Notes: a model not told the origin generated them from the letters alone. Counted from the first letter of the stretch, positions 5,301 to 14,516 are shown. The stretch: 51,360 nucleotides of DNA from Candidatus Heimdallarchaeota archaeon (GCA_029882335.1 JAOUKW010000001.1:1-51360); one strand, 5' to 3'. Made by a program: numbers and translations.

Positions 5301-5432
5301 TGAAAAATATTTTTCAAAATTGAGTTTCTCAAAAAGTAGTATATTATATGTAAATAAAAAGGAAAAACTAAAAGAATAGTAAGTATGAGGTTTTTATGTT
5401 GAACCTCAGAATATATTAAAGAAGTGTGTGCG

Positions 5433-7484
5433 ATGAGTAATAAGTTATCTAAAGATGAAGTAATTGATATTATAGTAAAAGAAACAGATTATACTAGAGA
5501 TGAAATAGAAGAAAAAATAAGAGAAACCGTTGAAATGATGGATAACATGGTAAATGAAGAAGGTGCTGCGTATGTAGTAGCAAATCATTTGAATGTTGTA
5601 ATTCATTTTGATAAATCTAGCGATTTATTAAGGATAAATCAATTAATCCCTGGACAATCTAACATAACAATTATTGGGCGATTATCCAAAATTTTTCAAG
5701 CTCGTAATTTTAATAGAAAAGATGGATCAACTGGAAAGGTTCAAAATTTAGAGTTGATTGATGCAACTGGTAATATTAGAGTAGTTCTGTGGGATAATGC
5801 AACGAATCTTATAAAGGAAAAAAATTTATCAGTGGGAAAAGTTATTCGATTAATTGGAGGTAATACAAAACTTGGATTAAATAATACCACTGAGCTATCT
5901 ATTGGATCCCAAGGAACGATATCTGAAGTGGTAAATTATGATAAAAATGATTATCCTGAGGTAAAACATTCCGATCTTATTTCAATTGGCGATATATCTA
6001 CTTCAAATCAAGAAGTGAGTATCCGGGGAAAAATCATGGATATACAACCAATTTATGAATTTTCAAGAGAAAATTCAACTGGAAGAGTAATGAGTACAAA
6101 TGTAAAAGATGTAACTCAAGAAATCCGAGTAGTATTTTGGAATGAACAGTGCGAAATTGGATTAAAATTAAAAATAAATGATGTAATCGAAATAACAGAT
6201 GTTAGAGTTAGTGAAAATAAAAATGGTTATTTAGAATTAATTTACAATTCACATTCTCAGTTAAAAATGGTTGATGATCCAACCCTAGCATCATTATCAG
6301 GTAGTATTAGTAGGGAAATAAATCAATTATCTGAAATTTCTGAGGATATGGATTTTGTGTCATTTAAAGGCAAAATATTAACAATTCAGGAGAAAAAAGA
6401 ATTTAATAGAAATGGAGAATCCAGTTATTTACAAAATATAATGGTTAAAGATAATACGCGAAATATTCGAATTACCTTATGGGGTAATAAAACAGATGAT
6501 CTGACTGAATTTAAAGAGGGCGATTTTATACGAATAATTAACGGTCAACCAAAAATCAGTTCATATTCGGGGGAGTTAGAGATATCATGTGGTTCAAGAT
6601 CTTCTATTGAAAAAATCCCAGCATTTGATATAACAAGTACCTCTGATGTGGTATTATCCCAAATAGATATTCCAATGAGTGGGGTAAATATCAAAGTAAA
6701 GGTAGAAAAAATCTTTGAAACAAGAGAATTTACAAGAGATGATGGTTCCACGGTAACTGTTTTAAACATCTCTGTAGTTGATAAAGAGGGGAATAGAGGT
6801 AAAATCGCTGCATGGGATGATAATATATCAAAATTAAGTGATATCAATGAAGGAGATGCGATTCTTATAGAAAACTCAAAAATTAAACCAAGTTCAGAAT
6901 ATGACCCGGAAATAAGTATCAATCCCTATTCCACTATTCAGATTATTGATGTAGATGAAGTAGTACCTATATTTCAAACTGCTGATAAATTAACAGATAA
7001 TATTATCTATCAAAACGTAACATTAGATGAATTACAAACTAATATGTATGTTAAAGTAAAAGGAACTATAGTGAAGGCATTTAACCCTTTTATTTATGAT
7101 TCTTGTAAAAAATGCAATAAAAAAGTAGATATGAATGGATTACAATTCAATTGTGCTGAACATGGGGAAGTAGAGGTAAATAAAAATATGATACTTACAA
7201 TTGTTTTGGATGATTCTTCTACTACTTGTAACTTAAAATTTTTTGGAAGACAAGCAGAAAAACTACTAGGTATGAGTGCAAAAGAAGCAAAGGATTTAAT
7301 TGATAGATTACAGGATGATCTTGCTCCTATAACTAAATCTGATATCTCGATGAAAGATATAATGATAGAAGGTAAGGTTAATTATGATGAGCACAGAGAT
7401 CAGTTGGAAATACAAGTAAGAAATGTTGAATTGATTTCCTTATATGAGGATACAAACTCGATATTAGATCAATATGATTTTTAA
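5433..7484 (+). CDS. rpa: Replication protein A (RPA/RFA) large, multi-OB-fold single-stranded DNA-binding protein
   Basis: Four repeats of an OB-fold pattern: IRVVLWDNAT, IRVVFWNEQC, IRITLWGNKT, GKIAAWDDNI. C-terminal zinc ribbon CKKCNKK-x11-CAEHG. The ORF track starts at GTG 5424; ATG at 5433 (MSNKLSK) is the more likely start. Confidence 0.75.
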   Translation: MSNKLSKDEVIDIIVKETDYTRDEIEEKIRETVEMMDNMVNEEGAAYVVANHLNVVIHFDKSSDLLRINQLIPGQSNITIIGRLSKIFQARNFNRKDGSTGKVQNLELIDATGNIRVVLWDNATNLIKEKNLSVGKVIRLIGGNTKLGLNNTTELSIGSQGTISEVVNYDKNDYPEVKHSDLISIGDISTSNQEVSIRGKIMDIQPIYEFSRENSTGRVMSTNVKDVTQEIRVVFWNEQCEIGLKLKINDVIEITDVRVSENKNGYLELIYNSHSQLKMVDDPTLASLSGSISREINQLSEISEDMDFVSFKGKILTIQEKKEFNRNGESSYLQNIMVKDNTRNIRITLWGNKTDDLTEFKEGDFIRIINGQPKISSYSGELEISCGSRSSIEKIPAFDITSTSDVVLSQIDIPMSGVNIKVKVEKIFETREFTRDDGSTVTVLNISVVDKEGNRGKIAAWDDNISKLSDINEGDAILIENSKIKPSSEYDPEISINPYSTIQIIDVDEVVPIFQTADKLTDNIIYQNVTLDELQTNMYVKVKGTIVKAFNPFIYDSCKKCNKKVDMNGLQFNCAEHGEVEVNKNMILTIVLDDSSTTCNLKFFGRQAEKLLGMSAKEAKDLIDRLQDDLAPITKSDISMKDIMIEGKVNYDEHRDQLEIQVRNVELISLYEDTNSILDQYDF

Positions 7485-9079
7485 GAAGATAGAAAATCTA
7501 TTTTATTCAAACCAAAAGATTTTAAATTTGTTACTGTCACTTGTCCTGGTGTTGGTATAATGTTTAGGGATTTTTGGAAACTTGTTTGATTTTGCATAGT
7601 ACCGCTATTCAGGATTTGAACTCCACGATAATATCCTTCTCCATTAATATGAATATGTCCTCCATGGAAAATATCTGGAATTCTGTCAATGACTAGATGA
7701 TCTCTGGGTTCTGTTGCCAGAGGTGTCTTAGATCCCCATATTGGAGCTAAATGACGAGCTCGCAACATTTGTCTCATAACTTCTACGGGCTTATCTGCCT
7801 GTAATCCAGGTATGTGATTTAAAATATCTGGAAGACTTGTACAATGGTACATCAATGTTTCTACTCCATGAATTTGTACTTGAGTTGGATTGGGTAGTAA
7901 ATGAACATTTTTCATAGAATTCAATGCAGGTGCATATTCTGGTGGAATACGCGGCTGGGGTTCAGCTGATCGTACCATATCGTGGTTACCTGGAATTATT
8001 ACTATTTCAACATCTTCGGGTATTTTTTCTAAATATTGGGCAAAAACTTGATATTGTTCTCTAATGCTATCTATTGATAAATCATTATGCTGATTGGGAT
8101 ATATACCAACCCCATCTACAACATCACCACTAAACAGTACATATTTAGTCTGTTGTCCTAATAATCTCATTTTGTTATTACCGTATTCACCATTTAGAAA
8201 ATTTATAAAATTTAACAACGGTTGCTCAAGGAAATTTTTCGATCCAATATGAATATCCGATAAAAATGCAGCGTGAACAGGTATATCTGCTCTATTGTTT
8301 TTCTTATGATATGGAATATCGGGTAGTAAGATCTCTTTCGCAATAAATACTTCATTAAAATAATTACCTATTACACAAATAACAGAATCATCCATTATTT
8401 GAACTGCTTCCTCAAGAAGTATCGCATTTGATTTAGGTATTACTGCTTGAATTGATCTATCAATAGTAGGATCCTCTAAAATAATTATTCCTCCACCTGT
8501 TGGATTAAATTGTTTTTCAACAACCATACCTATAATTGATACCTCATTATCAGATCTCTTCAAGTTTTTAATTGAAGTAATGTATGGGATATCTCGCCTT
8601 CCTCTAAAAATACTGGAAAGCCTTTGGTATCTATCCTGAAAATATCCAATTAAATCCTGAATATTTCCGGATAAGTTTTCTGAAAAATTAACCTCACTAA
8701 CAACATTAAATTTTGATTCATAATTAGATAATCCTGTTAAATCATCTAATGATGTTTGTAAACCTATATTGTTTAATTTTATTTGACTTTTTACATTTTG
8801 ACTACTTTTTGACTGTCTTGTTGATCTTGTTTTGGTTGTTCTTCTAGGTATTTTAGGTCTATTTACATCTGAATTTGAGACTGTGATTATTGTATTTTGC
8901 ATAGTAACAATTAATTTAAGGTCATTTGCAGAAAGTATATTATTCCTGTTTGGATTTGCAAGATATTTTTTAATACAATCGATGGGAGAGATAGTTGACT
9001 TTAGAAATTCGACTGCATCAGGCTGTACTATAATTCCAGACTGAATTAATTCCTTCACAGCCACCCTTATTTCTTCCAC
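7481..9079 (-). CDS. dp1: DNA polymerase II (PolD) small subunit DP1, 3'-5' exonuclease
   Basis: Calcineurin-like phosphoesterase motifs in the order typical of archaeal DP1: FLSDIHIGS, SGDVVDGVGIYP, IPGNHD, HGGHIH. An N-terminal regulatory domain and an OB-like middle region are present; 532 aa. Confidence 0.85.
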   Translation of the reverse strand: MEEIRVAVKELIQSGIIVQPDAVEFLKSTISPIDCIKKYLANPNRNNILSANDLKLIVTMQNTIITVSNSDVNRPKIPRRTTKTRSTRQSKSSQNVKSQIKLNNIGLQTSLDDLTGLSNYESKFNVVSEVNFSENLSGNIQDLIGYFQDRYQRLSSIFRGRRDIPYITSIKNLKRSDNEVSIIGMVVEKQFNPTGGGIIILEDPTIDRSIQAVIPKSNAILLEEAVQIMDDSVICVIGNYFNEVFIAKEILLPDIPYHKKNNRADIPVHAAFLSDIHIGSKNFLEQPLLNFINFLNGEYGNNKMRLLGQQTKYVLFSGDVVDGVGIYPNQHNDLSIDSIREQYQVFAQYLEKIPEDVEIVIIPGNHDMVRSAEPQPRIPPEYAPALNSMKNVHLLPNPTQVQIHGVETLMYHCTSLPDILNHIPGLQADKPVEVMRQMLRARHLAPIWGSKTPLATEPRDHLVIDRIPDIFHGGHIHINGEGYYRGVQILNSGTMQNQTSFQKSLNIIPTPGQVTVTNLKSFGLNKIDFLSS

Positions 9080-9491: not shown

Positions 9492-9551
9492 CCACCATGA
9501 CTTAGAAAATTTTATCTAATATAGATAAGATTTTCCAACGATATTCTTCTT
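9492..9551 (+). repeat. 5' arm of the 23S rRNA processing stem
   Basis: ccaccatgactta (9492-9504) and cgatattcttctt (9539-9551) are exact reverse complements of 13526-13538 and 13512-13524 downstream of the rRNA. The 34-nt spacer 9505-9538 is itself a hairpin (ttatct/agataa core). Confidence 0.75.
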
Positions 9552-11497
9552 CCTAGACTTTTGTAGGTAATATTACTTCAAGTTAAGTAAGTATAGTGAT
9601 TCTGCCAAACGGCACTTGATGGATACCTTGGCTGAGAAACCGACGAAGGGCGTGGCTAGCTGCGATAAGCTTAGGGGAGACGCATGCAGTCTTCGATCCT
9701 AAGATCCCCGAATAGGAATCCATTGTACGTCCAAAAAGCGTACAAATCCTCTTTTGAGGAAGGGAACCCACTGAACGAAAGCATTCAAGTAAGTGGTGGA
9801 AAAGAAAGCAACAGCGATTTCCTTAGTAACGGCGAGTGAAAAGGAACCATGGTCAAACCGAATATTATTTTGAAAAAAATAATAGATGTGGTGTTGTGGA
9901 CCGAAACCAATGCTTAGCAGACATAAATCGAACTCTTTTGGAACAAAGGGCCATAGAGGGTGAAAGCCCCGTAGATGTAAGTCTGTTGCTACGAGTTTCG
10001 TCATCCAGACTAGGGCGCATTGGGTGTTGCGTCCAAACTTCGAGAACTAACTCGAAAACCTAAATATTAATCTCAGACCGATAGAAAACTAGTAAATTGA
10101 TTGAAAGGTGAAAAGTAGCGGTAACACGCAGTGAAAAGAGCTTGAAATCAAGTGCTTATAGAGTATAATGGCGTAAAAGGATAGAGACTCGATGTACCTA
10201 TAATCGGTGACGATTCTACGGGAATCGAGTTTACCAGCGTCATTGTGTCAGTCTTGAAACACTGGTCAGGGAGTTTATTCGAGTGGTGAGACCAAGATAA
10301 TATCTAAATCGTAGGGAAACCAATCAGTCCGCAGCATTGCAAGGGACAACGTCTGAAAGGGCGTGAAATCACTCGAATAAGATGCGAAAGGCGTCGATCT
10401 ATGCGTGGCCAGGTTGAAGCCGTGGGAAACTACGGTGGAGGACCGAAGGGGTATTGATATACAACTCATTCCTCTGAGCTGCGTTTAGTAGTAATAGGCT
10501 AATCTAGGCGTCTGATAGCACATTACCGTCGAAGTGGAGCCGCAGTCCAGCGTTGGGCGAGTAAAATTTGAAGGTAGAGTACAGACAGTGTTGGAATGGG
10601 GAATTTATTCCTCGCCGCACCATCTAACTCCGAATGTCAAATTTATTTAGACCCCAGCAGTCGGGCGGGTCGCCGTAAGGGTGATCGCCGAGAAGCGAAT
10701 AAGCTAGATTTGGGTTAAGGGCCCTAAATGTCAATTAAGTGTAAAAATGAAGAGCGTCGTATTCCGAAGACAATGTGATGGTAAGCTTAGAAACAGCTAT
10801 CCATTAAAAAGTACGTACTAGTTTACACATCGAGGAATACGGCCTTGAAAATGGACGGGGCTAAAATTGACTCCCGATACCCAAAGGCATGTATAACAAC
10901 ATGATCCGGTAGACGGTCGATCGGCGAGGGTTGAAGCAGGTTGGTGATGACCTGTGGACCTCGTCGATGCGCAGATCCTGATAGTAGTAGGCAGAAAATA
11001 TGGGTGAAAATCCCATAGGTCGAAAAGGCAAGGGTTCCTGGGCAACGTCAATCGACCCAGGGTAAGTCGATCCTAAGAGTAGCCTTAGTATGGTTATCTC
11101 AAAAGGGAAACAGGTTCATATTCCTGTACCACGCTTGAAAACCGGCAACGATAGGAGGAGATCAGACGTTTGTGGATAGGCTTTTCTGGATCGTCGTCCA
11201 GACTAAGTATATAATTCCGGGGAGTAATGTTACATTGAGAACCGGAAAAAATTACCAATGGCCCACCAATAGTGGTAGGTAAGGTCGATTTCCAAAAACC
11301 CATGAAAATGATCTTCTTTAATACAGCGTGATCGTACCAACAACCGACACGGGTGTCCTTAGGCTGAGAAAGCTAAGACCTCTTGGAGTAATGCAGGCAA
11401 GGGAATTCGGCAAATTAGGCGAGTAACTTAGGGATAATCGCTGCCTTTACATGTTCACGCGTGCGAAGGTGTCACTAACTCAGGAAACCCGACTGTT

Positions 11498-11917
11498 AAA
11501 TTTTGTTTGACAGTAAGTGTCCTGATGAAAATCGGGGCAAGTTACATGCGATGTAGCAACATCATCAAATTGCGGGAAAATCCTAAAGCTATTAATACTC
11601 TTCATTCTGAGAAATCTGAATAGAAAACCAGGGTAATGACCTCGGGCATAGTAACAACTTAATAGATATATGGACGATCCGCAGCCAAGCTCTAACTCAA
11701 TTTATTGATATGAGTGCAGTTCAACGACTAAACGGTGATGGGTGATAAATCTCATTGATTTATTGCTTAAGATATAGTCTGTCTCGCTAGAAATAGTGTT
11801 TGTCGTAAATGTATAATATGAAATCGCAATTAGAGTAATATTATAAGAAAGGACAGAATTGATATTGTGAAAGAAAGTAATTTAAATTTTACTCATCATG
11901 ATATTATAGTGAAAACG
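11498..11917 (+). ncRNA. Group I self-splicing intron (ORF-less, 420 nt) within 23S rRNA
   Basis: - It splits the universal GACUGUU|UAACAAAAACA block.
- P1: exon actgtt 11492-11497 pairs with gacagt 11509-11514 and ends in a U.G pair.
- P10: ttttgtt 11501-11507 pairs with exon aacaaaa 11919-11925.
- The intron ends in G (11917).
- Core elements: tcaaattgcgggaaaatcc (P, 11565-11583), atccgcagccaagctctaa (Q, 11677-11695), gcagttcaacgactaaacgg (R, 11716-11735), aagatatagtctg (S, 11769-11781).
- P7 is gacta/tagtc. Confidence 0.85.
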
Positions 11918-12590
11918 TAACAAAAACATAGCAAACTGCTACGCTGAAAAGCTTTGTATAGTTTGTGAATCCTGCTCCGTGCTGGTAAGTCAAATCCGGG
12001 TTCAACCGGGCTAAGCTCCAGTTAACAGCGGGAGTAACCATGACTCTCTTAAGGTAGGCAAATGCCTTGTCGGATAATTACCGACGCCCATGAAGGGACC
12101 AACGAGGTTTCCACTGTCCCTGCCTGGAATCCAGTGAACCTACAGTCCGGCGAACAGTCCGGAGAGTTCCGTTGGGAAGAGAAGACCCTGAGAGCTTTAC
12201 TATAGCTTCCAGTTGTTTATTCGGCTCTCGTACAGAGCGTAGTTAGGAGACTTTGAAGTCAGGTCCCCGGGCCTGATGGAGTCAACAATGGAACACTAAC
12301 TTCGTGGGCTGGATAGACTCACCTGTTGCGACGGGGACACCTGGTGGTGGATAGTTTGGCTGGGGCGGCACGCCTCCGATAAGGAAACAGAGGCGTCCAA
12401 AGGTCGGCTCAGGAGGGACAGAAATCCTCCGTAGAGTACAAGGGCATAAGCCGGCTTTACTGTGAGCACAAAAATCCTGCTCGCTGTTAAGAAATTAGGG
12501 CCTAGCGATCCATCCAATTGCCTTTAGTAGGCGTGGGTGGTGGCAGAAAAGTTACCTCAGGGGTAACAGAGTTGTCGCGGGCTATAGTCC

Positions 12591-12952
12591 ACACATGTGG
12601 TTTAGTCAATCATACCTCAACTTTTCTGGTCTCTGTGTTCGTTATATTGATCTAATAGATCACTTAACCACCAAAGAAATAAAAATAGTAATGCTTTTAG
12701 CACTCATTGCCGTGAGTGCACCACTTCAGGTCTTTCCTAACGTATAAGGGAAGAAGAATATCCAAACCGATCACACCACAGTAGGGTTTTCCCAATGATC
12801 TGTGTGTTGGTCTAGAATCCATTAAACTCCCCTTATACCCTAAGAGTAGATCTGAATGGCCGTAAAGTTATTACATTTCCCAGCATAATGTTTATCTATG
12901 AAATGTCTAACAATGGTTAACTAAACCCTCAAGCTGAGGCTTGTATTGGGAT
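12591..12952 (+). other. Second ORF-less insertion (about 362 nt) in 23S rRNA at the helix 89 apex; intron or intervening sequence of unresolved class
   Basis: The flanks gtcgcgggc-tatagtcca and tattgac-cccgcggcttgc rebuild the conserved H89 stem and a 16-nt loop (UAUAGUCCAUAUUGAC; archaeal consensus as recalled is GAGAGCCCAUAUCGAC). The insert is visibly AT-richer. It is structured: closing stems 12599-12606/12920-12927 and 12664-12670/12914-12920, hairpins at 12700-12719 and 12731-12754. The junction is ambiguous by 1 nt. Confidence 0.7.
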
Positions 12953-13511
12953 ATATTGACCCCGCGGCTTGCTTCCTCGATGTCGGCTCTTCCTCGCTTG
13001 GTGTTGCATAGGGCACCTAGAGTAGGGTTGTTCGCCCGTTAATAGGGAACGTGAGCTGGGTTCAGACCGTTGTGAGACAGGTTGGTTTCTATCTAACGGA
13101 ACTGTTGGGTGATTGTAAGCAAAATGACTTCAGTACGAGAGGAACGAGTTGTTGTGGCCTCTGGTCGATGGGTTGTCTGACAAGGCACTGCCCAGTAGCT
13201 ACGCCATTACAGATAAGAGCTGAAAGCATCTAAGCTCGAAGCTGTTCTTGAAAAGAATCACCCACTCAGCAATAGTTGATAAAGTCAAATTTGTACTTCC
13301 AGTACAAATACAATGATAAAATCATTCTGGGATCAGTGATGATAACGGAAATATATTGCAGACGAGGACATGGAAAAAAGATCCGTTGAAAGGAATGGGG
13401 TGTAAGCGTTGAGCTCCGGCGAAATGTTTAGCCCACATTTACTTACGTCCAAGGCGTTTCACTTGAAAGCTTTTCGAGGAGTAGTACCTAGAGCAATTGT
13501 ATAGGAAGAGT

Positions 13512-13538
13512 AAGAAGAATATCGATAAGTCATGGTGG
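13512..13538 (+). repeat. 3' arm of the 23S rRNA processing stem
   Basis: aagaagaatatcg (13512-13524) and taagtcatggtgg (13526-13538) are reverse complements of 9539-9551 and 9492-9504. In addition, acttgaa 13461-13467 pairs with ttcaagt 9577-9583. Confidence 0.75.
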
Positions 13539-13643: not shown

Positions 13644-14516
13644 TTAGGAATACTTATCTAGAAAATCAATAATTAAATTTGCAAGTGGTAATTCTTCAAA
13701 ACTATCTGTCATGTATCCAATTCCTTCATATATACTAGTTTCAATTGCTAGAACTTTTGGAATTGGCAATTTTAGCTGAGTTAATGAAAGAAATTGATTA
13801 GAAGAATTAAATAATTTTGCCTCACCTCTTAACATTAAATCTTTTTTGTTCAATAAAACTAGTACTGGTGTTTCTTCATTACGATAATGAATAACTTTTT
13901 CAAACGCTTTTGCTACTTCTAATAGGTTATTTGATGTCGCATCAATTATGAAAAAAATGCAATTTGATTTAGAAATTGCCTCTTCCCAAAGATACCAAAA
14001 ATCTTGCTGCCCTCCCATGTCTAATGTATTTACAATACTTGAACCAAGTTTAAAATTTTTCACTGATTTTCCCATTGTAGGAACGCTAGTAATTAATCTA
14101 GTTTCTCTCTCAGGTATCAGTGTAGATAGATATCTTACTAATGAAGTTTTACCAACTCTTGAAGGTCCTGCGATTGATATTGTTAGGTTTTTTGTGTGAA
14201 TTTTAGAAAATAATTTTTTTCGTAGTTTAGTAAAAATGGAAATATTAGACTTATCATTTTTAAAAAATGGAATTTCAGGGACACGTAATACTTCAGGTAA
14301 TTCATCTTCATTTAAAGCGATTGTATCACCTAAATATTCTCCTTTTTCATCAAAATAAACAATTCTGGTATGATCATTATGGAGAATTGAATAAGCACCA
14401 ATATCCATATCATTATTATTTGATCTAATTTTGATTTCTTCATCTGATATCATTACAGTATCATATCTTCCACATGCTTCACAATCTAATGTTCTAATTA
14501 TAATTTGATTGTTCAT
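13644..14516 (-). CDS. Arf/Sar-like small GTPase with a novel N-terminal CxxC...HxDH module
   Basis: C-terminal G domain: G1 GPSRVGKTS, G2 PTMG, G3 plus Arf-type interswitch DMGGQQDFWYLW, G4 NKKD. The N-terminal ~100 aa (IIIRTLDCEACGRYD...HNDHTRIVYFDEKGEYLGDTIALN) is shared with the paralog at 24088-24984. Confidence 0.75.
   Translation of the reverse strand: MNNQIIIRTLDCEACGRYDTVMISDEEIKIRSNNNDMDIGAYSILHNDHTRIVYFDEKGEYLGDTIALNEDELPEVLRVPEIPFFKNDKSNISIFTKLRKKLFSKIHTKNLTISIAGPSRVGKTSLVRYLSTLIPERETRLITSVPTMGKSVKNFKLGSSIVNTLDMGGQQDFWYLWEEAISKSNCIFFIIDATSNNLLEVAKAFEKVIHYRNEETPVLVLLNKKDLMLRGEAKLFNSSNQFLSLTQLKLPIPKVLAIETSIYEGIGYMTDSFEELPLANLIIDFLDKYS

Follow-up and report, generated by a model that had tools for sequence, protein, structure and literature searches.

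A probable bulge-helix-bulge intron in the apical loop of helix 89 in the 23S rRNA of a Heimdall-group archaeon

Introduction

What kind of element occupies 362 nucleotides in the apical loop of helix 89 of 23S ribosomal RNA (rRNA), a hairpin flanking the route by which the acceptor end of tRNA enters the peptidyl-transferase centre? The question is posed by the 23S gene in a 51,360-nt stretch of DNA from Candidatus Heimdallarchaeota archaeon (GCA_029882335.1 JAOUKW010000001.1:1-51360), referred to here as the window, with positions counted from its first nucleotide. A first-pass annotation had recognized the insertion and offered four classes for it: a relaxed bulge-helix-bulge (BHB) intron, a degenerate or atypical group I intron, an intervening sequence whose excision leaves the 23S fragmented, or an expansion segment retained in the mature rRNA. 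Searches with group I and group II covariance models, and covariation among homologous insertions, had been put forward as means of deciding among them.

The insertion, located at 12593-12954, is interpreted here as an archaeal BHB intron with a probability of roughly 0.9, because the BHB motif covaries, the site is occupied in 11 lineages, and a homologous intron is precisely absent from an RNA-derived contig. The host is a Heimdall-group archaeon. The nearest relatives of its neighbouring proteins are named Kariarchaeaceae, and those closest to the neighbouring Arf-like GTPase bear the names Kariarchaeaceae or Heimdallarchaeota LC_2.

Position and Composition of the Insertion

The Rfam archaeal large-subunit (LSU) rRNA model matches the window at 9598-13461 on the + strand (2318 bits). 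In this alignment, the apical loop of helix 89 holds 364 nt as opposed to 2 in the consensus, which bears out the presence of a 362-nt insert at the helix apex. As had also been described, the insert is AT-richer than its flanks (G+C of 37.8% versus 49-53% in the flanking rRNA and 30% in the whole window) and has no open reading frame (ORF) of >= 60 aa, the longest ORF touching it being 50 aa. Its fold is more stable than that of shuffled sequence (z = -4.0).

The boundaries of the element follow from the gap in the Rfam LSU alignment, from insert-free relatives that align up to 12593 and again from 12955, and from the BHB cleavage rule:

12593..12954, + strand: intron, 362 nt

Since A12593 and A12955 are the same base, the junction has a 1-nt ambiguity, and 12594-12955 is an equivalent reading. 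Insert-free loops set the junction in that their exon 1 ends 10 nt past GGGC and their exon 2 starts with AUUGAC. With these ends, the mature loop of the window is UAUAGUCCAC joined to AUUGAC, as opposed to the earlier version, UAUAGUCCAUAUUGAC; the loop of insert-free relatives reads GUYC(A/C)(C/U)AUUGAC in 18/18 cases. The original placement at 12591-12952 was right in length and 2 nt too far 5′ in position, while its alternative junction at 12588/12589 is excluded, as mature loops keep CCAC or UCAC. We take the site to lie between 2477 and 2478 in E. coli numbering, from our own alignment of the loop to an E. coli sequence that agrees with the known modified positions 2449, 2457, 2498, 2501, 2503, and 2504.

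Intron-Free 23S Contigs

Sequences of the Heimdall group fall into two kinds with respect to this site. Every DNA-type contig retrieved, whether from metagenome-assembled genomes (MAGs) or from insert-bearing metagenome contigs, the longer of which have flanking genes, contains the insert. The 18 insert-free contigs in the metagenome scan are all rRNA-only and 1-5.3 kb long, and their loops read UAAAGUUCACAUUGAC, UAGAGUCCACAUUGAC, or a close variant. Many are circularly permuted, with the 23S 3′ end joined to the 5′ end, and some exceed one full turn. Circular permutation together with the lack of flanking DNA marks the insert-free contigs as probably RNA-derived. Such permuted contigs are the expected assembly product of circular pre-23S or 23S RNA, and circular 23S is already known in archaea, including Asgard members (PMC12918454).

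The most telling case is a pair of contigs from one species. RNA-type L051 (L-numbers designate individual loci) is 99.92% identical to genomic L042 over 2605 nt and 100% identical over 309 nt. It lacks exactly L042 5280-5729 (450 nt), its exons being joined as GUUCAC/AUUGAC. The same contig also holds GGAUCAGUACCUAG joined directly to UACUGAUCC, that is, the trailer side of L042 joined to its leader side, and this second junction is predicted by the processing-stem BHB of L042, which has a GGGU/ACCU central helix and cuts after the second bulge base. Both RNA junctions of L051 follow from L042 by one and the same rule, cleavage behind the second base of each bulge. In addition, L049 and L053, which are 95-98% identical to L073, are missing the intron of L073. 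As read from these contigs, the homologous insert is removed and the exons are ligated, in molecules that appear to be end-processed by the same pathway as well.

These contigs also bear on two of the classes originally offered. An expansion segment kept at the helix 89 tip might have been expected from the large expansion segments (ES) ES9 and ES39 of Heimdall-group LSU rRNAs (PMC7594248), from the presence of the insert in every genomic copy found, and from its length, which varies as that of an expansion segment does. That idea is now highly improbable: the loop is closed and 16 nt long in all 18 rRNA-only contigs of the group, many of which are circular-junction RNA products, an insert-bearing genomic contig belongs to the same species as one of the 18, and a covarying BHB has no role in an expansion segment. 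Similarly improbable is an intervening sequence excised without religation, leaving a fragmented 23S. Excision without ligation does have a precedent in Pyrococcus, where 23S helix 98 is removed from a circular precursor (PMC7758197), but the RNA-type contigs run continuously through the joined GUUCAC-AUUGAC of the closed loop, and their ends lie elsewhere than in helix 89.

Beyond the question of splicing, the circularly permuted 23S contigs without flanking DNA (L043, L044, L046, L048, L051, L059, L063, L065, and L066, some longer than one unit) indicate circular 23S RNA in Heimdall-group archaea. In L044 and L046 the circle closes at about 3127 nt. Several RNA-type contigs break in the variable ES39/helix 98 region; for instance, L043 ends at about window positions 13219 and 13372, and the ends of L051 against L042 leave 6039-6103 (65 nt) unaccounted for. 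Such breaks may have arisen in assembly, the sequence being AT-rich, or may mean that the circle is really opened, as it is in Pyrococcus.

The Bulge-Helix-Bulge Motif

With the corrected junction, a BHB motif with two 3-nt bulges 4 bp apart can be drawn at the intron ends. The first-pass annotation had held that it could not, and it missed the motif because its junction was set 2 nt too far 5′. The parts of the motif in the window are as follows:

12574..12586, + strand: outer helix, 5′ strand; helix 89 stem GUCGCGGG plus loop bases, partner 12956-12968
12956..12968, + strand: outer helix, 3′ strand, in exon 2, UUGACCCCGCGGC
12587..12590, + strand: central helix, exon strand GUCC; pairs with G12949-U12952
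12949..12952, + strand: central helix, intron strand GGAU; pair counts made on 11 sequences
12591..12593, + strand: 5′ bulge, AC/A; predicted cut 12592/12593, after the second bulge base
12953..12955, + strand: 3′ bulge, AU/A; predicted cut 12954/12955
12594..12598, + strand: inner helix, 5′ strand; clean pairs C12594-G12948 and A12595-U12947, more pairs requiring a bulged U12946
12943..12948, + strand: inner helix, 3′ strand; included in the pair counts

The outer helix is closed beside the bulge by A12586-U12956. The motif was assessed in a fixed-register alignment of 11 sequences, with 500 shuffles and with the 3′ partner columns slid by 1-3 positions. Over the 11 sequences, 95.2% of motif cells are paired (95.5% in the outer helix), and the observed pairing score was reached by 0/500 shuffles; sliding the partner columns by 1-3 reduces pairing to 24-66%. 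The central helix is paired in 11/11 sequences, with one position varying as U-A, U-G, or C-G. The inner helix comprises 4-9 bp in the homologs and has compensatory changes at all five counted pairs, its variants including CAUGU/GCAUG, CAUUC/GAAUG, CCGAU/AUCGG, UGCUU/AAGCA, and GGACU/AGUCC. Covariation of the BHB motif across homologous insertions is thereby borne out. Forcing the BHB costs 0.1-4.1 kcal/mol relative to the minimum-energy fold, and 1.6 kcal/mol in the window.

A splicing route of the usual archaeal kind can be proposed from this arrangement. The outer helix of the precursor would consist of the helix 89 stem with a few bases of the loop, exon G12587-C12590 would pair with intron G12949-U12952 as the 4-bp central helix, and the two intron ends would form the inner helix, held by a long closing helix (12599-12606 / 12920-12927). 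The two bulges would in this way be presented to the tRNA-splicing endonuclease EndA for cleavage at the two predicted sites, after which an RtcB-type ligase would join the exons into the 16-nt loop UAUAGUCCACAUUGAC and probably also circularise the intron.

Several points weigh against this interpretation. The BHB of the window is the weakest of the set, with a mismatch in the outer helix (U12585-U12957) and an inner helix of only two clean pairs that is absent from both the thermodynamic and the constrained fold. EndA and the ligase are the presumed enzymes; tRNA introns in the window, considered as a sign of EndA use, were dropped as an argument, the three tRNAs having none. The RNA origin of the insert-free contigs is likewise deduced from circular permutation and absent flanking DNA, not from sample metadata. 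Finally, the best RNA-type match to the window organism is ~92% identical; with no close match of this type, splicing there rests on homology and is a probable extension from its relatives. As to the strength of the motif, the family form is canonical and the window copy alone somewhat relaxed, the flanking helices of the hBHBh′ arrangement being clear in homologs; the option of a relaxed BHB intron was right as to the BHB and, for this copy only, as to its relaxation. Asgard archaea have been reported to possess a broad-specificity (alpha-beta)2 EndA carrying an L1 loop (PMC5829648), and such an enzyme should tolerate the relaxed motif of the window.

Homologous Insertions

With the 5′ exon strand as query, 39 loci were retrieved from a set containing a single genome for each species. 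Most archaea among them have a plain 16-nt helix 89 loop, while seven have an insertion at the exact site:

MAGs: L001, 470 nt; L003, 451 nt; L028, 397 nt; L025, 279 nt; L016, 259 nt; L004, 221 nt
Thorarchaeota: L006, 30 nt

Four of the six MAGs are labelled Heimdallarchaeota and two are other archaeal MAGs. The metagenome scan added L045/L050 (422 nt) and eight more L003-type copies, and 12 synteny look-ups via the Arf-like GTPase gave two new 23S loci, L071 (282 nt) and L073 (328 nt). Altogether, same-site insertions occur in ten other Asgard sequences, of which nine are from the Heimdall group (221-470 nt) and one from Thorarchaeota (30 nt). An assembly artefact or chimera is the least probable of all the explanations considered, since homologous insertions at the same position are present in 10 other independent assemblies from different projects, and nothing was found in its favour.

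Eight introns (window, L028, L025, L071, L073, L001, L045, and L003) make up what is called here the long family. In L073, an apparent extra insert at 2807-2906 is a scaffold gap of 100 N and not an intron. At the other extreme, the Thorarchaeota insertion (L006 1744-1824, SHMX01000009.1) is a mini-intron consisting of the BHB closed by a 9-bp hairpin and nothing more; a second Thorarchaeota genome, L032, has no insert at helix 89. Heimdallarchaeota RS678, from which L003 comes, was part of an earlier Asgard rRNA study in which "known intronic regions" were taken out with no description given (PMC7594248).

Interior of the Intron

The closing stem at 12599-12606 / 12920-12927 noted at the outset, together with the local hairpins at 12700-12719, 12731-12754, and 12927-12939, is present both in the sequence and in the minimum-energy fold. 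A proposed continuation of the stem (ttaacca 12664-12670 / tggttaa 12914-12920) is complementary, yet it is unused in the predicted fold and its conservation was not found. The main interior features are:

12597..12607, + strand: motif E1, GUGGUUUAGUC; most conserved 5′ motif, with alternative partners 12920-12927 (Pa) or the exon-1 tip 12580-12592
12920..12927, + strand: closing helix Pa, 3′ strand ACUAAACC; resembles the exon-1 tip, as do its counterparts in other species
12731..12754, + strand: hairpin UCUUUCCU / AGGGAAGA; holds the 5′ half of motif E6 and is an intron-internal alternative to leader pairing
12777..12804, + strand: kink-turn-like hairpin CACAG-UA-GGG-UUUU-CCC-AAUGAU-CUGUG, with an asymmetric loop
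12927..12939, + strand: 3′ hairpin CCUCA-AGC-UGAGG, between Pa and the inner helix; a hairpin is found at the equivalent place in homologs

E1 has the family form GUG(A/G)UUUAGUC just past the 5′ end, with a divergent version in L073 (GUGGCCAUUAGUC), and a UUAG(U/C)-type core is found at its position in 8/8 long introns. Pa is likewise present in 8/8 members of the long family. Its 3′ strands, which end 22-37 nt before the intron end, are very different from one another. Also common to the long family are a hairpin with GGAAGAAGAAUAUC after it, bearing motif E6, and then UCACAC, the AUGA-containing hairpin, and GUUGGUC.

Interior helices were read by hand; RNAalifold, applied to a MAFFT alignment of the central region, predicted no pairs, the alignment being poor. 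The hairpin at 12777-12804 lies between UCACAC (12771-12776) and GUUGGUC (12806-12812). Its AUGA, located opposite (G/U)A, is invariant, and the 3-bp stem beside its asymmetric loop shows compensatory changes, as read by eye. Also by eye, L025, L071, L001, L073, and L045 have the form (stem)-RAU-GA opposite GA-(stem), with UA instead of GA in the window and L028. A kink-turn, to which L7Ae binds, consists of a 3-nt bulge and then tandem sheared G-A / A-G pairs, set between two stems; on the features above, the hairpin is a putative one. A C/D-box small RNA within the intron was considered on account of AUGAU and CUGA and rejected, as their spacing and conservation do not fit.

Near-copies of the exon edges also occur inside the introns. 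UCACAC, in the window and homologs, resembles the end of exon 1 plus the intron start, and AUUGACC(C) in the L025, L001, and L028 introns resembles the start of exon 2. With the likeness of the Pa 3′ strand to the exon-1 tip, these may mean that the intron arose by local duplication, or may reflect mimicry.

The conserved 5′ motif invites comparison with a self-splicing intron, in which E1 would act as the internal guide sequence of a degenerate or atypical group I intron on the 5′ exon. E1 covers the final 13 bases of the exon, as far as the splice site, in a pairing that resembles a P1 helix, a genuine group I intron exists in the same gene (11514-11800, 115 bits), and a published hypothesis cited in PMC6125680 derives BHB introns from group I introns. 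This possibility is nonetheless very remote. Group I and group II models give no match at E <= 10 in the window intron or in the largest homolog (L001); Rfam at this threshold returns no intron family, and on the insert alone only chance-level rli45, mir-1284, and HOTAIRM1, with a similar outcome for the largest homolog. Most sequences end the 5′ exon with C and two with U, and no U-G pair is formed. Long introns terminate in U, A, or C; the only terminal G is that of the 30-nt L006, itself a bare hairpin that could not be a ribozyme. The early doubt about a group I intron was therefore well placed, there being no conserved 5′ splice-site U or terminal G among homologs, and the alternative junction that would have supplied both is the one excluded above by mature loops.

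Two further layouts were tried and rejected. In a group I arrangement with the closing helix as P3, 12927-12939 as P8, and A-rich GAAGAAUAUCC as J8/7, P1/P2 cannot be accommodated before P3, a terminal G is missing, and no model matches. No Rfam group II model gives a match, and the homologs range down to 30 nt, as against a group II size of roughly 400 nt or more.

Motifs Antisense to the Precursor

Unexpectedly, the best-conserved motifs of the intron are complementary to other parts of its own precursor. Three of these were followed, namely E6 against the 23S leader, and E1 and E2 against the upstream exon:

12749..12762, + strand: motif E6, GGAAGAAGAAUAUC; perfect 14-nt complement of the 23S leader at 9540-9553
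9540..9553, + strand: leader strand GAUAUUCUUCUUCC; part of the extended 23S processing stem and target of E6
13502..13524, + strand: trailer strand; the leader's other partner, in an imperfect helix with a 6-nt bulge
12619..12628, + strand: motif E2, AACUUUUCUG; perfect complement of exon CAGAAAAGUU at 12544-12553
12544..12553, + strand: E2 exon target; conserved, immediately before the peptidyl-transferase loop on its 5′ side

E6 resembles a cleaner version of the trailer strand. In the window, leader-E6 pairing is calculated at -24.7 kcal/mol versus -21.3 kcal/mol for leader-trailer pairing, and leader-E6 is at least as stable as leader-trailer in 4/5 species. Intron-leader matches were taken from exact-complement and local-alignment scans, RNAduplex on long inputs being meaningless, and E6 is the top antisense match in 6/6 species with the leader available. 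Complementarity is 14/14 in L025 and L071, 14/14 with two double changes in L073, and 22/25 with a bulge in L001; L003/L042 have 10 bp with further double changes. In the pair counts, 94% of cells are paired, five pairs are changed on both sides, and 0/500 shuffles reach the observed score. L004 and L016, whose introns are divergent, lack E6, and a complement to the leader was not found in them.

E1 is complementary to GGCUAAA(GU)UCAC of the exon-1 tip, on the 5′ strand of helix 89, up to the splice site. The pairing ranges from -6 to -17 kcal/mol in all sequences, with a different register in L004 and L016, and E1 has A->G where the exon has C for U (window and L073). In three species, the unconstrained fold favours this pairing over Pa. 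Of the eight long-family introns, six contain the E2 motif; its complementarity is an exact 10-mer in the window and L073, and 8-10 bp, counted by eye, in the remaining four. As the E2 target is invariant, covariation is not possible, and of the three motifs E2 has the weakest evidence. Both E1 and E6 have another potential partner within the intron; for E2, none was found.

The alternative partners suggest two states, a closed one in which the intron is paired with the leader and with strands of the catalytic centre, and a splice-competent one. The pairings of E6 with the leader and of E1 and E2 with the exon may, judged by complementarity, reflect a real role in folding or timing, although on balance we lean against it. 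Slightly more doubtful still is the broader proposal that the intron is a built-in antisense element of ribosome assembly as opposed to a passive passenger. Under that proposal, the intron may hold the catalytic-centre strands and the leader in a non-native form until it refolds to the splice-competent form; alternatively, it could act in trans as a stable excised circle. A different view is that the antisense motifs are relics of intron origin, kept only for bringing the ends together.

Relation to Known Systems

BHB introns in archaeal rRNA have long been known, and in 23S they occur in Desulfurococcus, Pyrobaculum, and Aeropyrum. In 16S, they are found in Thermoproteales (PMC4496867). The helix 89 intron has in common with these an exon-intron helix-bulge-helix-bulge-helix with 3-nt bulges 4 bp apart, precise excision with exon ligation, and a functionally central rRNA site. 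It differs in that its host is a mesophilic-looking, AT-rich Heimdall-group archaeon as opposed to a thermophilic member of the Thermoproteota, in that it lacks a homing-endonuclease ORF and yet is present in every genomic copy retrieved, and in its conserved internal motifs antisense to the leader and the upstream exon. Neither an intron at helix 89 (2477/2478) nor pairing between intron and leader was found described in the searchable literature, which covers few subscription papers.

The closest parallel within the same transcript is the processing-stem BHB that yields circular pre-23S or 23S (PMC12918454, PMC7714728), for which the motif and the presumed enzymes are the same, and both events are seen in L051. 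At the processing stem it is the rRNA that becomes a circle, whereas the rRNA is resealed at helix 89 and the piece cut out of it is discarded or circularised. The window's own processing-stem BHB is canonical (9565-9571 / 13486-13492, with central helix AGGU/ACCU and bulges AA/U and AG/A) and belongs to a stem that extends to 9540-9556 / 13502-13524. Predicted cuts at 9570/9571 and 13491/13492 would give circular pre-23S.

The tRNA introns processed by EndA and RtcB are recognized by the same motif and cut by the same rule, behind the second base of the bulge. They are 12-100 nt long, as compared with 362 nt here, where an internal closing helix keeps together the two ends, 360 nt apart, that make up the motif. 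Archaeal LSU group I introns (PMC6125680) occur in the same gene at conserved domain IV/V sites, and many are also ORF-less; unlike these, the helix 89 intron has no catalytic core, conserved U, or terminal G, and its splicing would be protein-dependent. BHB and group I introns can coexist in one archaeal LSU gene (PMC6125680).

With regard to the antisense motifs, the nearest functional analogy is provided by antisense chaperones of pre-rRNA such as the eukaryotic U3 and U8 small nucleolar RNAs and by the alternative 5′-exon hairpin of Tetrahymena pre-rRNA that competes with P1. As in those cases, short conserved antisense elements are complementary to the leader and to rRNA strands that have to refold later. 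Unlike U3 and U8, the elements considered here are inside an intron of the same transcript and are known from sequence alone.

Other Features of the 23S Locus

The 23S gene of the window contains a second intervening element, a 417-nt group I intron at 11501-11917 (Rfam match at 11514-11800, 115 bits). We take its site, placed by eye, to be around E. coli 1780-1790. It is shared only with L001 and L050, other DNA- and RNA-type relatives being without it, and it looks sporadic and mobile, unlike the helix 89 intron. In the Hadarchaeota loci L023, L030, L033, and L035, the 23S consensus is lost right after CCUCGA (CCUCA in L033), around E. coli 2500. A group I intron is listed at LSU/2500 for LQMQ01000054.1, the source of L023 (PMC6125680), which fits this departure.

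The gene is solitary, with no 16S nearby. Its neighbours are a PolD small-subunit gene on one side and the Arf-like small GTPase gene on the other, and an RPA-like gene lies farther upstream; these flanking genes are at 7481-9079 (-), 13644-14516 (-), and 5424-7484 (+). The PolD-23S-Arf gene order is common to the window, L025, L071, and L073.

Position 12563 of the window (GGGGUAAC) is G, as opposed to A in the archaeal consensus and in E. coli (E. coli 2448). Nearly all loci with G at the equivalent position are from the Heimdall group or Thorarchaeota, with the addition of the archaeal MAG L019, while Hadarchaeota and methanogen loci have A. The G looks like a largely Asgard-associated lineage trait.

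Implications

The splicing mechanism proposed for the helix 89 element is itself of a known kind. What is unusual is the site, its occupation in every genomic copy found in the Heimdall-group lineage, and the conserved antisense motifs. In practical terms, the intron is to be removed before analyses of rRNA length, expansion segments, or phylogeny, and circularly permuted, intron-free rRNA contigs in public metagenome collections offer ready evidence of splicing.

The conserved, covarying complementarity between intron and leader gives a testable link between intron removal and rRNA end processing. If that link is real, helix 89 maturation, intron removal, and 23S end processing and circularisation would be coupled, with all three cuts made by the same endonuclease. 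With helix 89 beside the route taken by the acceptor end of tRNA, a 23S that keeps the intron should be inactive, and splicing would then be an obligatory late step of ribosome making in the archaeal group closest to eukaryotes.

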